Positions 28,401 to 34,400 of a stretch of 41,572 nucleotides of DNA are shown here, in pieces. The position numbers are program-made. Position 1 is the stretch's first letter; each line of letters opens with the position of its first letter. This stretch comes from Thermodesulfobacteriota bacterium (GTDB taxonomy: Bacteria > Desulfobacterota > Desulfobulbia > Desulfobulbales > SURF-16), in NCBI GenBank assembly GCA_039715015.1, contig JBDLIE010000021.1, positions 1 to 41,572 on the forward strand. The letters run 5' to 3'.

Positions 28401-31400
28401 AGAATATTCTTGATGGCCTGCATCTGGACCAGGATCTCTCTGATGCCCTGGCTTCGGGAACTGGTAGTATGGGTGTGCTTCTCGCCCTCACCACGGCCTA
28501 TGAACAAGGCGATTGGGAGACGGTGGACAAGGTCTGCCAGAGCCTCTCTGTGAATATTACGGCCCTGCCGGAGCTGCTTGCCTCCTCCGTTGAGGCGGCA
28601 AGCCAGATCTATTTCGGCGATTAACCGCCTTTTTCAATTCTAGCCCTTCAGGGTGTACATCTTAGAAAAGTCGCCGATCTGCAGAAAGAGGTGGGCAATG
28701 GCCGCCAGCAGTGACAGTCTGTTGTGTTTGACCGCCTCATCCTCGGCCATCACCATTACTTCGTCAAAGAAACAATCCACCGGCTCTTTCATCTTTAAAA
28801 TAGCCTGCAATGCCTTATTGTAATCCCGTTTGGCAAGAAGGGGCCGGCACTCTTCGGCTACCTTGGTAAAGGCTGCAAAAAGTTTTTGTTCCGCATCTTC
28901 GCTGAGAAGTTTTTCCTGGACCTCTCTGTCCTCATGGTCCTTGATGATGTTGGTAACCCGCTTAAAGGCGCCTGCCAACAAGGTGAAGTTTTCATGGCTT
29001 GAGATTGCGGCCAAGGCGGCAAGACGTTGTCGGCAGTCGGTGATGTCGTCAAAATGACCTGAGGTGGCAGCTTCAACGGCCCCGGCCGCATTGCCTGCGG
29101 CAACAAGATCATTAATATAGCGGCCTTTGATAAAGTTGATGATGGTGGCGAGGGTTTTCTCTTTGTTCATCTCAACCTTAGCGTCATACTGGTCAAGGGC
29201 CTTGCTGAAAATAGCAGACAAGGAAAGGTGCCAGTCTTGGTCGCTGATAATATGGATGAGGGCCAAGGCATGACGGCGCAGTCCGTAAGGGTCGGTGGCG
29301 CCGGTTGGGGCCTTGCCAATGGCAAAACAGCCTGCCATGGTGTCAATGCGGTCTGCCATGCTGACCAGGGCTCCTGCCTTGCCGGAAGGCAGGGCGCTTC
29401 CTGAGCGCAGCGGTTTGTAATGGTCCATGATGGCCTCGGCCACCTCTGCTGTTTCACCGTCATGGAGAGCGTAATATTTGCCCATCACCCCCTGGAGGGA
29501 AGGGAATTCACCCACCATGTCGGTGACCAGGTCGGCTTTGCACAGTTCAGAGGCCCTTTTGGTCGTCTCAAGAAGATCGGGCTCAAGCTCCCTGGCCAGC
29601 TGGGTGGCCAGGCTGGTGAAACGCTCATTCTTTTCTGCCATGGTGCCGAGTTGGGCCTGGAAAACAACGCCGGACAGGGAAGCTTTATACTCTTCCAGAC
29701 GGCGTTTACGGTCTTCGTTAAAGAAGAAGAGCCCATCTTCAAGGCGGGCCCGGAGGACGCGTTGATGACCCTCTCTTGAAATGGCTTCGTCCTTTACCCG
29801 GGTGTTGTTCACCGCCACGAAATAGGGGAGCAGGTCGCCGTTTTTGTCGGCCACGGTAAAATACTTCTGGTTAACCCGCATGGAGGTAGTGAGCACCTCC
29901 TTTGGCAGTTCGAGAAATTTATCATCAAAGGAGCCGCCAATGGCATTTGGCAACTCCACAAGTTGGGTCACTGTATCAAGAAGGTCAAGGTCAAGGACCA
30001 CGCTGCCGCCGGAGGCGCTGGCCGCCTCTTTTACCTGGCTTTCGATCAGTCCGCGCCGTTTGTCAATGTCAACCAGTACGTCCATGTCAAGGAGAGCCTC
30101 CTGGTACTGCTTGAAGTCGGTGATCTCACGGGTTTCGGGGCTCATGAAACGATGGCCGCGGGTGGTGTTGCCACTCTGGTGATCATCGATTTTAAATGAA
30201 AGGGTTTGGCCACCAAAGAGGGCGAGAAGCCATTGGAGGGGACGGGCAAAATGGGTGGCCTTGTCGGCCCAGCGCATGGATTTGGGAAAGGGCGTTGACA
30301 GGATAAGCTCGGGAAGAAAGTCCTGGAGGAGAGCAGAGGTGTCCTGGCCCTTAATCTCCTGGACCACCATGAGGTAATCGCCTTTATCCGTACTCACCAC
30401 CTGAATATCGTCAACAGAGGCTCCCCGTGACTTGGCAAAACCAATGGCCGCCTTGGTGGGTTTGTTGTCTGCGTCAAAACCAGCCTGTTTCGGGGGGCCC
30501 ATGACTTCCTTGCTCTGGTCTTCCTGGCGTTGGGCAAGATCACTGACGCTAATGGTCAGTCGCCGCGGGGTGGCAGCAGTGCGGATGGCGCTAAAGGGGA
30601 GGGAAAGCTCGCCAAGTTTTTTCTCCATTCCTTTTTTAAGGTGGGCAAGGGCAGGGTCTATATAGCTGGCCGGGATTTCTTCCGTTCCTATTTCAAGTAA
30701 AAGTTCGTGCTGCATGGTGATTCCGTCTTGATGAATGAATAACAAAGAGGCCTCGGGGCATTATGAAACCGTGTAATATACCCTACTTGCCGCAATAGAC
30801 CAGAGGAAAACGAGAGAAATTTGGTGGCATGAACCAGCATTTCCATCAGGAAAGGAGGTGAAGATGGTTTACTGCGAAGTGTCCTGGGGCCCCTCAATGG
30901 TTGCAAAGGTAGAAAAACCTTCTGAGAGGTTCTCCACTGTCACCGAAAACCAGGAGATGGCTGAATGATCGTTGAGGCGTTTGCCAAGATCCTTGGCCAG
31001 TTGCTCCACGGAGAGATGGGGCTGGTTTGGTTTGGGCTGGGCGGCGGACCACTGAAGGTCGTGACTGGTGACCTCTTCCACCACCTCGATAAGATCCTCG
31101 ATCCAGATGAAATGACGGAAGCGCACACAGATATCAGCATTACCCCAATGTCCCAGAGACTCAGGAAGTCCTTTGCCGGTTTGCTCCACTCCAGGCGGCG
31201 CAATGGGCACCCGAAACTCCAAGGTGAGATCATCCTCCGAGTCATAGGTGCCGTGCATCTTGCAACTATACTCCCTAAGCAGGCCGGTCTTGCTGGTGGT
31301 TTCTTTTTGGAGAAAATAGGGGAATTCTACCTCCATATGGGCCTGCTCCGCCTCTAGTTTTTCCTTCATCTCTTCAAGGATGAGGTGAAAGCTGCGCAGA

Positions 31401-34400
31401 TTGATCTCGCCATGAAAACGGTTGAGAATCTCCACAAAGCGGCTCATGTGGGTCCCCTTAAAATGATGGGGGAGGTTTACTGACATATTGACGGTGGCCA
31501 CACTGCGCTGGTGACGATGGGCCTTATCCAGAACCGTGATCGGGTAGGAGATTTCTTTTACCCCTACCTTTTCAATGCTGATCCGGCGATGGTCGTGTTG
31601 GCTCTGGATATCTTTCATGGCTTAGAAGGTGTGCCAAAGGGCTGGCAATTACCCAAGATGTTTCTGGACAGACTCAAGGAGTTCAGTGAGGTCGGCTGAT
31701 TTGACGATATAATCGTCAGAGGCCCAGGATGCCAGGTCCTGCTTAAACTCTTGGTAGGCGGAGCTTAGAATGACGGGCATGGCAGGCATTTTTTTTTTCA
31801 TGATGCGTAATGTGTCGATACCGTTAAGCCCTGGCATATTGATATCAAGGATGACCAGGTCAGGTTTAAGGATATCAAGGGAGTTTAAGGCCTCATCGCC
31901 GGAGAGGGCGGAGTGGACTTCATAACCTGCATCTTCAAGCTCATCGCGGTAGAGGAGATGGATGGACTCTTCGTCATCAACAAGTAAGATTTTTTTCATG
32001 ATGTACCTTGCTTTGCTTACTGATCAATCCAGATTGAACTCTGGGCGTGGTTAAGAAACGCTGACCTCGCGCAGAAATTTAGCGGCATCTTCAGGGGGGA
32101 TGGGGTTAATGTAAAAACCGGAACCCCATTCAAATCCGGCAATACTTGTGAGCTTGGGCATGATCTCAAAATGCCAGTGGTAATGGCGCATAGGCTCAGA
32201 GCGTAACGGCGCACCGTGCAATACAAAATTGTAGGGCACATTGGGGATACAGCTCTCCAGGCGATACATGGCCTCGCCAAAAATCCGGGTCAGGGCCTGG
32301 AACTGCTCATCACTCTGGGTGATATAGGATGAGGCGTGCTGCTTGGGGAGTACCCACATCTCAAAGGGGGAGCGCGGTGCCCAAGGAGTGGTGACGACAA
32401 AGTGATCGTTTTCACAGACCAGGCGGGTCTGTTGTTTGATCTCCTGGCGGATAATGTCACAATAAACGCAACGCTCTTTATACTTGTAATAGGAGAGGCT
32501 GCCCGCTAGTTCGGAAACAACCATTCGGGGTAAAATGGGCAGGGCGACAAGCTGGGAGTGGGAATGCTCCAAGGAAGCGCCGGCAGCCCGTCCTTGATTT
32601 TTGAAGATCATCACGTATTTGAAGCGTTCATCTCTGCCCAGGTCAACCAAGCGGTCCCGGTAGGCAAGAAAGACATCCATCATCCGGTCAAAAGGGAGCT
32701 TGGAAAAGGTCTCGTCATGATTTGGCGTCTCAATGATGACTTCATGGGCGCCAATGCCGTTCATTTTGTCGTAGAGCCCTTCACCTTCTTTGTTTAGATC
32801 TCCCTCAATAACTAAAGCAGGGTATTTGTTGGGCACGGCCCGCAACGTCCAACCCGGGGTATTGGGAAGACGGCCTGAACTGCCGTAACCAAGAACCTCT
32901 GAAGGGGTTGTTTTTTCGTTGCCTGGACAGAGGGGGCAGAAACCACCCGTGCTGGCTGGTTCGTTGATGATGAAGTCTGTGGGGCGCTTGCCACGCTCCT
33001 GGGCAATAATGATCCAACGGCCCAAGACAGGATCTTTACGTAACTCAGGCATTGTTATCCCCGCTTGAAATCATGTGCAGTCAGCGCTGTGCTGTGAAAT
33101 GCAGATAGTTTCATGTGGAGGCCAGAGGGGGAAATCAACCGGCCTTGGCCTTTTCATAATTTTCCTGCTTGGTCTTGCAGTTGATGCACAGAGTGGTCAC
33201 AGGACGGGCCTCAAGACGTTTGTCACTGATATCATCGCCGCAGTCGTCGCAGATACCAAAGCTCTCATCTTCAATACGCTCTGATGCCTCTTTAATTTTG
33301 GAGAGGAGTTTGCGCTCGCGATCGCGGATACGCAGCTCGAAATTGCGGTCTGACTCCGCAGTTGCTCTATCCGCAGGGTCGGGGTAATTGCCGGCGCTGT
33401 CGTTCATCTCATGGAGGGTCTTGTCAGCTCCAGCAAGGATTTCTTCACTCATTTTTTCAAGCTTTTCTTTAAAATAGGCCAGTTTCTTTTCGTTCATGGC
33501 TTATCTCCATATCATGCTGGCGGAAAACATGAGCCAGACTTTTCTTAATGTCAAATTAGAAGCCATTGCTTCTTGTAAAACCGATCAAAAAAGCAGAGCC
33601 TTATGAAACTATCGTACATAGGTGCCGCTTTTGCCACCTGTTTTTTTGAGCAAATAAATATTTGAAATTTTCATTCCCTTGTCCACTGCCTTGCACATGT
33701 CGTAAATGGTCAGAGCTGCGACGGAAACTGCGGTGAGGGCTTCCATTTCAACCCCTGTCTTACCGGTAATGCCAACTGTGGCCCTGACGGTGATAGCCGA
33801 AGAGGCTTCAGCCAGCTCAAACTCAACATCTGCTTTGGTGATGGGCAGGGGATGGGTGAGAGGGATGAGGCTGTCTACCTTTTTGGCGGCCATAATCCCG
33901 GCCAGCCTGGCAACACCAAGAACATCACCCTTGGCAATGGAACCCTGCTGCACCAGGGCAAAACATTCCGGGCTCATGGTGATGGCACCCTGGGCTGTAG
34001 CCTCTCTGGCGCTGTCGGTTTTGCCGCTGACATCAACCATGCGGGCATTGCCTGCATCATCAAAATGGCTAAATTTAGTGTCGTCTGTCATGTTTCTTTT
34101 TCAGCCTTCTTAAAGAGGCGCGAAAAAAAGCCTTCGTCCGTATCTTTGGCATCTTCAATCTCGCCAAATTCTTCCAGGAGTTCCACCTGTTTTTTGGTGA
34201 GCTTTATTGGGGTAACAACCTGCACCTCGACAATCATATCGCCGGTACTCCGGGTGCGGAGGCTGGGAGCCCCTTTGTCTTTGAGATGAAAGGTCTGGCC
34301 TGACTGGACACCTTTGGGGAAGGTGAAAGATGTGTCACCATGGGCAGTGGGGATATCCAGAGTGCAGCCCAGGGCCGCCTGGGTCATGGTCAGTGGTAAC

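Follow-up and report, generated by a model that had tools for sequence, protein, structure and literature searches.

A pair of FolE2 paralogs with complementary active-site losses is predicted to form one GTP cyclohydrolase IB in Desulfobulbales

Introduction

What does a FolE2 protein do when it has kept only part of the active site of GTP cyclohydrolase IB? The question is raised by a gene at 30869..31618 (minus strand) in the window, that is, the 41,572-nucleotide contig JBDLIE010000021.1 of a Desulfobulbales genome (GCA_039715015.1). Its 249-residue product (hereafter designated A) has no metal ligands and is proposed from its sequence to be a substrate-side subunit. An earlier note had described it as one of two FolE2 genes, both incomplete; indeed, A and a second paralog outside the window (hereafter B; 246 residues, G000:C9:63338-64078, minus strand) are the sole PF02649 matches in this genome, which is 99.99% complete.

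The known GTP cyclohydrolase IB (GCYH-IB, FolE2) enzymes are homotetramers having a site at each three-subunit interface, with Cys and His provided by one chain and Glu by the opposite barrel, as stated in PMC11573665; the site geometry was also drawn from PMC11672702. According to PMC5699537, catalysis in FolE2 is intersubunit, unlike that in bimodular QueF, whose site lies inside one chain. A site located between chains makes its split between genes possible.

Results

Conserved motifs of A and B

The frame of A is open and begins with MKDIQ. Its D-I-Q motif (residues 3–5; 31604..31612, minus strand) and KGTHMSRF motif (residues 54–61; 31436..31459, minus strand), the latter being the proposed share of A in a live active site, are strictly retained. 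Thus, D3 and Q5 occur in all 92 A proteins but in 0 and 1, respectively, of the 93 B proteins, and K54, G55, H57, M58, S59, and R60 are each found in 92/92 A, with H57 and R60 in none of the B proteins (0/93). CPCS, GAHNQR, LKRxDEK, FVED, and ESIHxH were not detected in the 249-residue frame, and throughout the 92 A proteins the motifs carrying the FolE2 metal ligands (Cys, His, and the cross-barrel Glu), the second Cys, and the catalytic Glu and His are missing. A derived motif, LGHWG (residues 155–159; 31142..31156, minus strand; G156 in 88/92 and W158 in 91/92), replaces GAHNQR, and a Val-Glu remnant of FVED, V204–E205 (31004..31009, minus strand; 89/92 and 88/92, respectively), is kept at the proposed dead site, which refines the motif loss stated earlier.

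The AlphaFold2 model of A (mean pLDDT 80.6) shows 8 strands and 4 core helices in the same bimodular T-fold as FolE2 (PF02649, NF010200; PDB 3D2O, 5K95, 8G6C, 2R5R), and its top Foldseek matches are 2r5r and GCYH-IB structures (TM ~0.75). By sequence, B matches the same PDB chains with E values of 6e-73 to 2e-56. On the NCBIfam FolE2 model (NF010200; cut-off, 215 bits), B scores above the cut-off (243 bits; intact control, 311) and A below it (119.6 bits), and on MptA (TIGR00294; cut-off, 220 bits) both fall below (A, 44.6; B, 110.9).

In B, all five of the motifs absent from A are present, and DIQ and HMSR are missing. Since none of the 93 B genes has D[IV]QxxxD in any frame of the 120 nt that precede it, the short N-terminus of B is not a start-calling error, and a mis-called start or hidden N-terminus is excluded. 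B also keeps the N-module hairpin motif KxAPV (91/93), which is lost in A (0/92), and carries conserved replacements of its own, R42 (80/93) and C45 (82/93).

Complementary loss of active-site residues

Motifs were counted without alignment in 92 A, 93 B, and 30 intact outside proteins. D[IV]QxxxD was found in 92/92, 0/93, and 26/30, respectively, and GxHMSRF in 92/92, 0/93, and 30/30; CPCS, LKRxDEK, FVED, and ESIHxH were each found in 0/92, 93/93, and 30/30, and GAHNQR in 0/92, 93/93, and 29/30. The two complementary motif sets, and the retention of both by outside copies (26 to 30 of 30 per motif), are thereby confirmed, and A and B pooled hold all FolE2 motifs of the intact enzyme, including the metal-ligand and catalytic set. 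The earlier description of two complementary halves is corrected here: the split follows active-site membership and not chain halves. Among 98 positions near-invariant in the 30 intact proteins, 35 are kept in B only, 12 in A only, 20 in both, and 1 in neither, with 30 intermediate. Compared with the intact consensus, the live-site faces score 0.86 (A) and 0.74 (B), and the dead-site faces 0.36 (A) and 0.29 (B).

Both genes are under selection. The dN/dS values of 0.23 (N-half) versus 0.46 (C-half) for A and 0.31 versus 0.19 for B, obtained from pairs that are not independent, are lowest in the half bearing the motifs of that copy. A pseudogene status of A is ruled out by the open frame and by dN/dS below 0.5 in both halves.

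These features may also be read with B as a self-sufficient homotetramer, in which an R42/C45 N-module replaces HMSR, and with A as an optional activator or regulator that either joins B or uses its retained Glu to bind a pterin or a guanine nucleotide. Such a reading would suit the score of B alone above the FolE2 cut-off with all metal ligands, the conservation of R42 and C45, the retention of V204–E205 in A together with a new GxWG motif, and the frameshift of A in three genomes of one genus having an intact B. Nevertheless, R42 is missing in 13/93 and C45 in 11/93 B proteins, whereas the catalytic core is found in 93/93; the N-side face of B has drifted to the above value of 0.29; the residues invariant in A are exactly those lost by B; and the frame downstream of the frameshift in A is open and conserved. 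We regard a self-sufficient B as unlikely.

Model of an A2B2 tetramer

In an A2B2 model containing 2 Mn and GTP, the motifs of A are set against the catalytic module of B. The A–B interface includes residues 4–5, 54–56, 58–59, and 204–205 of A and residues 134–135 and 200–202 of B; residues 233–241 of B pair with 17–22 of A, and, across barrels, residue 181 of B copy 1 touches residue 62 of A copy 2. Contacts agree by at least 96% between runs, with partner pLDDT of at least 80. The model scored 0.92 (best of 3 controls, 0.00), a value that may only mirror likeness to the solved homotetramer and that came from a run with custom alignments and ligands, unlike the calibration runs, in which the mark was reached by 116/157 solved and 2/215 mismatched pairs. 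That the active site spans subunits, given as background in the earlier note, agrees with PMC11573665 and PMC5699537 and with the modelled interface; a site within one chain as in QueF, which would undo the complementation, was rejected on the basis of PMC5699537 and the model. When the residue numbering of PMC11573665 was mapped by us onto the 8g6c chain, the cross-barrel metal ligand was the Glu of KRPDE, not that of PMFVED.

From sequence and model, we propose, with a probability of roughly 80%, that A and B together build a single GTP cyclohydrolase IB. As an A2B2 tetramer in which two AB barrels are joined, it would make dihydroneopterin triphosphate, feeding folate and queuosine. Because the site lies at a three-subunit interface, such a tetramer would have two complete and two dead sites. 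At each live site, one B chain would supply Cys133, His145, Glu202, Glu229, and His232, and the A chain sharing its barrel would supply DIQ and KGTHMSR; Glu187 of KRPDE, a metal ligand, would come from the B chain of the other barrel (a B-to-B donation expected from the twofold symmetry). In the two reciprocal sites, all three contributions would be lost. Presumably, HMSR binds the substrate, as suggested by conservation, the model, and analogy; HMSR or DIQ residues were not found as a requirement for activity in the literature searched, outside which the primary GCYH-IB structure papers lie, and none is named in the one searched file of the PMC11573665 supplement. Since neither protein appears to hold more than a part of the active site, A and B probably function only in combination, as an obligate complex.

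Distribution in the order and origin

At least two FolE2-family matches were counted from the table in 145/151 order genomes; the earlier claim of two or more copies in every genome thus stands for these and fails for the remainder. A full B match and an A match co-occur in 137/151 genomes, including 13/13 of those in at most 10 contigs, and the split is fixed across 17 families of the order, a group of sulfur-cycling bacteria to which the cable bacteria belong. B was not found in G036 (91% complete) or G038 (93% complete). In G019 (96% complete, 300 contigs), A and a third type are present with no B match, and the locus occupied by B in a congener holds another gene. Among 80 loci, the A type was not encountered outside the order: 22 are without the C-terminal motifs, and each of these that has a family or genus name belongs to Desulfobulbales. 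Comparable splits elsewhere in the phylum sample were rejected, as in all 8 outside genomes with two matches these proved to be intact copies that were partial or broken between contigs, or else the third type beside an intact copy. As points counting against the pair model, A keeps E205, B has R42 and C45, the genes are unlinked, and B-less and A-frameshifted genomes exist.

FolE was not found in this genome and was detected in 1/151 order genomes, which rules it out as the working enzyme. A demand for the step is indicated: FolK is present in 144/151, and this genome carries FolP and a QueD/PTPS gene besides FolK. The third type, a motif-complete, MptA-like relative, is present in many order genomes, this one excepted; it keeps both motif sets in 8/8 aligned proteins, and at least three FolE2-family matches were counted from the table in 61/151 genomes, some being fragments. 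The obligate heteromer put forward earlier is supported by the literature geometry and the model, but "order-wide" needs a caveat because of this relative. The third type would also permit an A/B heteromer with a changed product or role, the folate pterin coming from the third type or from salvage; however, in this genome and most others A and B are the only types and FolK is nonetheless retained, the live-site sequence is ancestral, and the third type stands in a separate glycosyltransferase cluster. A changed product seems to us the most improbable of the readings weighed here.

In the tree, A and B each form one clade. An A+B clade is compatible with the data (AU p 0.81), and the tree constrained to it is better by 17.9 log units; half-protein FastTree trees weakly put B close to Geobacter-type copies and A close to other intact ones, a hint at transfer. 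We infer that one duplication, at the root of the order, gave rise to both; the data allow this origin rather than show it.

Gene neighbourhood of A

Directly upstream of A lies a conserved gene for a single-domain response regulator (31649..31999, minus strand); a GalT-like uridylyltransferase gene (32051..33052, minus strand; 90 A genomes) is a further conserved upstream neighbour, and the likewise conserved glyS (28640..30745, minus strand; 86 A genomes) lies downstream. This fixed neighbourhood contains no folate gene and, together with the occurrence of A without a B match in G019, would fit an A oligomer with an unrelated job, such as nucleotide binding tied to galT, the response regulator, or glyS, with B acting alone or with another partner. 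In an A-only oligomer, however, HMSR would face an A C-module without the pocket residues; moreover, A was confined to the order among the 80 loci, and such a job leaves unexplained the loss by B of the same residues that A kept. We give an unrelated job of A very little credence.

Discussion

In contrast to known FolE2, the A/B system is without any complete single chain, and two chain types with two live sites are predicted. A and B have lost complementary residues of an intersubunit site, as in DHSc/DHSp-type pairs. The plant bimodular GTP cyclohydrolase IA of Basset et al. 2002 reportedly carries two domains in tandem, each short of the complete catalytic set; it is of type IA and one fused chain, in contrast to the two unlinked genes of A/B. 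In trypanosomatid deoxyhypusine synthase, a homotetramer gave way to a DHSc/DHSp heterotetramer of paralogs in which two sites are active and two are dead, and yeast complementation requires both paralogs (PMC7581365); with an unrelated fold and a eukaryotic host, the analogy extends to the mechanism but not to the family. In bimodular QueF, the T-fold active-site motifs are split between two diverged modules (PMC5372742). Shared-site pseudoenzyme pairs are thus already known from the trypanosome enzyme; in the literature searched, most subscription journals being outside its coverage, no such pair and no heteromeric or split form was found described for FolE2.

A more far-reaching view, in which an obligate A2B2 enzyme from unlinked genes runs folate and queuosine entry in Desulfobulbales and its dead sites have taken on a regulatory role in sensing a ligand or the redox state, with the conserved Glu of A facing the conserved Arg and Cys of B, is tentative and doubtful.

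In current annotation, B would be taken for a complete FolE2 and A falls under the cut-off, so that pathway models and expression of B alone would mislead, also for cable bacteria. The A/B split would moreover sort the conserved FolE2 residues by donor subunit. If true, the pair would offer a clean and ancient example from bacteria of complementary loss turning a homomer into an obligate heteromer, with intact single-copy relatives across the remaining phylum as controls, and a neutral versus regulatory origin of the added complexity would become testable.

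Two FolE2 paralogs with complementary motifs

The window gene at 30869–31618 (minus strand), hereafter type A, encodes a 249-residue protein that, on translation of the frame, has both DIQ and KGTHMSRF but lacks every C-terminal motif, and its unlinked partner, type B (G000:C9:63338–64078, minus strand, G000 being the genome that holds the window), encodes 246 residues with the opposite motif pattern. The two share 31% identity and are the only PF02649 matches in this 99.99% complete genome, bearing out the earlier note that it has two FolE2 genes, neither of them complete. In the NCBIfam FolE2 model, type A scores 119.6 and type B 243, below and above the cut-off of 215, respectively. 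The predicted fold of type A is a bimodular T-fold (mean pLDDT, 80.6), to which 2r5r and the GCYH-IB structures are closest. Type A by itself does not qualify as a FolE2, and A and B together carry every sequence feature of the family.

Motif conservation was analyzed in an alignment of 92 A, 93 B, 30 intact (FolE2 proteins with both motif sets, the top-scoring hits from outside Desulfobulbales), and 8 third-type proteins (motif-complete relatives separate from A and B), with both A and B coming from 89 genomes. This set is part of the 151 order genomes: 30 B were the top Pfam hits, 30 A the best matches to the window protein, and the others were hand-picked across families, including the weakest scorers and omitting three frameshifted A. 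Typing by best BLAST hit agreed with a tree built from 31 sequences of each type, in which A and B each formed one clade with support of 100. D[IV]QxxxD and GxHMSRF occur in 92/92 A and 0/93 B, and CPCS, GAHNQR, LKRxDEK, FVED, and ESIHxH in 0/92 A and 93/93 B, each motif being present in 26 to 30 of the 30 intact proteins. Among 98 positions near-invariant in the intact proteins, 35 were conserved in B only, 12 in A only, 20 in both, and one in neither, with 30 intermediate. Complementary motif loss stands, but as read from the alignment the split differs from a plain N-half versus C-half division: B retains the N-module hairpin KxAPV (91/93, compared with 0/92 in A) and A retains Val-Glu of FVED (E in 88/92).

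Median dN/dS values for the N- and C-halves were 0.23 and 0.46 in A (167 pairs), 0.31 and 0.19 in B (491 pairs), and 0.08 and 0.12 in the intact proteins (19 pairs), for non-independent pairs with dS of 0.1 to 1.0.

Active-site geometry and the A2B2 model

PMC11573665 describes FolE2 as a homotetramer built from two 16-stranded barrels, its active sites lying where three subunits meet. One chain supplies Cys154 and His166 and the opposite barrel Glu208; Glu250 and His253 are conserved catalytic residues. By our mapping (offset, 34), these five residues lie on the 8g6c chain in LCPCS, GAHN, KRPDE, and FESIH, all retained in B. PMC11672702 likewise has the cross-barrel Glu. Bimodular QueF shares the motif layout but has its site within one chain (PMC5372742), an arrangement that would undo A/B complementation; against it, FolE2 is stated in PMC5699537 to be intersubunit, unlike QueF. 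The site spanning subunits that the earlier note assumed is thus in print. No demonstration of a requirement for HMSR was found in the accessible literature.

If the tetramer has three twofold axes and its barrels are AB pairs, reciprocal pairing would allow the second B chain to supply the Glu of a B site; two sites would then be complete, and two would have lost all three contributions.

The A2B2 model with two Mn and GTP scored 0.92 (best control, 0.00), with contact agreement of at least 96% between runs and partner pLDDT of at least 80. Of the pairs used for calibration, 116 of 157 solved ones and 2 of 215 mismatched ones reached the mark; this job differed from that calibration in having its own alignments and added ligands. 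Resemblance to the solved tetramer may account for the pass, and the worth of the model would lie in the layout it gives. Predicted A–B contacts, to which the contact output was confined, pair A 17–22 with B 233–241, include A 4–5, A 54–59, B 134–135, and B 200–202, and reach across barrels from residue 181 of B copy 1 to residue 62 of A copy 2. On the faces that we assigned from the model's interface lists, match to the intact consensus was 0.86 (A) and 0.74 (B) at the proposed live site, where DIQ/HMSR of A would meet the metal and catalytic motifs of B, and 0.36 (A) and 0.29 (B) at the reciprocal, presumably dead site. Running against this reading, R42 and C45 of B and E205 of A are conserved at the dead site.

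Distribution, pathway demand, and gene context

By our count, PF02649 matched in all 151 order genomes, at least twice in 145, so that the claim of two or more copies throughout holds except in six; the strongest match within the order (E, 1.4e-84) begins at profile position 13. Of the 242 phylum genomes from outside the order, 211 had a match, and the single high-scoring copy claimed for them was found in 203, mostly full-length (E, ~1e-100), the remaining eight having two. Neither type A nor type B occurred in any of these eight; the low-scoring outsider G337 lay outside this check. A full B match (E under 1e-60) was absent from 11 order genomes and an A match from three; both were present in 137 of 151, and in 13/13 of those in at most 10 contigs. 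Among named carriers of A are Desulfobulbaceae, Desulfobulbus, Desulfocapsa, Desulfofustis, and Ca. Electrothrix gigas, names that mark the order as Desulfobulbales.

G000 has FolK, FolP, and one QueD/PTPS gene, and FolE was not found there; across the order, FolE occurs in 1/151 genomes and FolK in 144/151. In ~90 genomes, type A is flanked on one side by a response regulator with galT and on the other by glyS, and type B adjoins hslR and purH in ~64. The gene preceding 15 of the 30 intact copies starts like, and is presumably, queD. In seven outside genomes (L105, L109, L111, L112, L114, L117, L119), the gene upstream of intact folE2 is one we take, from its GKGGVGKT motif, to be a CooC/MinD-like ATPase, and in L260 (G249) the intact gene is closely followed downstream by an incomplete duplicate of the folE2 3′ end. 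Scanned neighbours at window positions 24803–37892 are all ordinary (Npun_F2552-like protein, FabL-like reductase, Maf, EAL-type protein, glyS, response regulator, galT, dksA, moaC), together with what we take from translations to be dnaJ, rpoZ, and FlgO-like lipoproteins. In a test on 8 A, 8 B, and 44 intact proteins, the tree constrained to an A+B clade was 17.9 log units better, and such a clade was not rejected (AU p, 0.81).

Exceptions and other PF02649 proteins

Among copy-missing genomes, B pieces were located at contig ends in G037 and G099, the locus extends beyond the contig in G038, G052, and G064 and is broken in G136, and the hslR neighbour was likewise not found in G036 and G001; G070 was uninformative, and G060, G112, G141, and G146 were left out of this look. 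In G019 (96% complete), type A and the third type are present and no match to B was found, making it a possible true exception to co-occurrence. In a congener of G019, B adjoins hslR; in G019 that place is taken by a gene (L345, 1900–2756) that we take to be a LuxR-type, autoinducer-binding-like regulator.

In G008, G024, and G048, of one genus, the A-run of type A is 10 rather than 11 as in intact G036 (loci L073, L074, and L208 versus L050), shifting the frame at about codons 103–107. Past this point the reading frame stays open and is conserved (dN/dS, ~0.12 versus G036; 0.3 to 0.4 among the three), which suggests slippage rather than loss, transcriptional slippage or ribosomal frameshift being candidates.

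At least three PF02649 matches, fragments among them, occur in 61/151 order genomes. The third type (~305–350 aa; GCYH-IB/MptA-like) carries both motif sets in 8/8 aligned proteins, fell below NCBIfam cut-offs in the two scored, and could be the source of activity in genomes carrying it; it was not found in G000, which has two matches. Its loci (L071, L091–L096, L239, L240; outside, L248, L256–L259) have, among scanned neighbours, GT2 glycosyltransferase (four loci) and PolyA_pol plus HD nucleotidyltransferase (three), and it possibly belongs to a pterin-glycoside pathway. A true MptA (289.9 bits, above cut-off) in Desulfobulbales genome G133 (L070) adjoins a formylmethanofuran-tetrahydromethanopterin formyltransferase gene.

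Collectively, A and B probably form an obligate A2B2 enzyme (about 0.8). The order-wide heteromer proposed in the earlier note is supported, with G019, where no B match was found, and the third type in part of the order as caveats. Literature searches found no split or heteromeric FolE2, and the pair has apparently not been described before. In working principle, it would resemble trypanosomatid deoxyhypusine synthase, described in PMC7581365 as a heterotetramer of paralogs in which two sites are live and two dead. The A/B split is a real, order-wide variant of a known principle.
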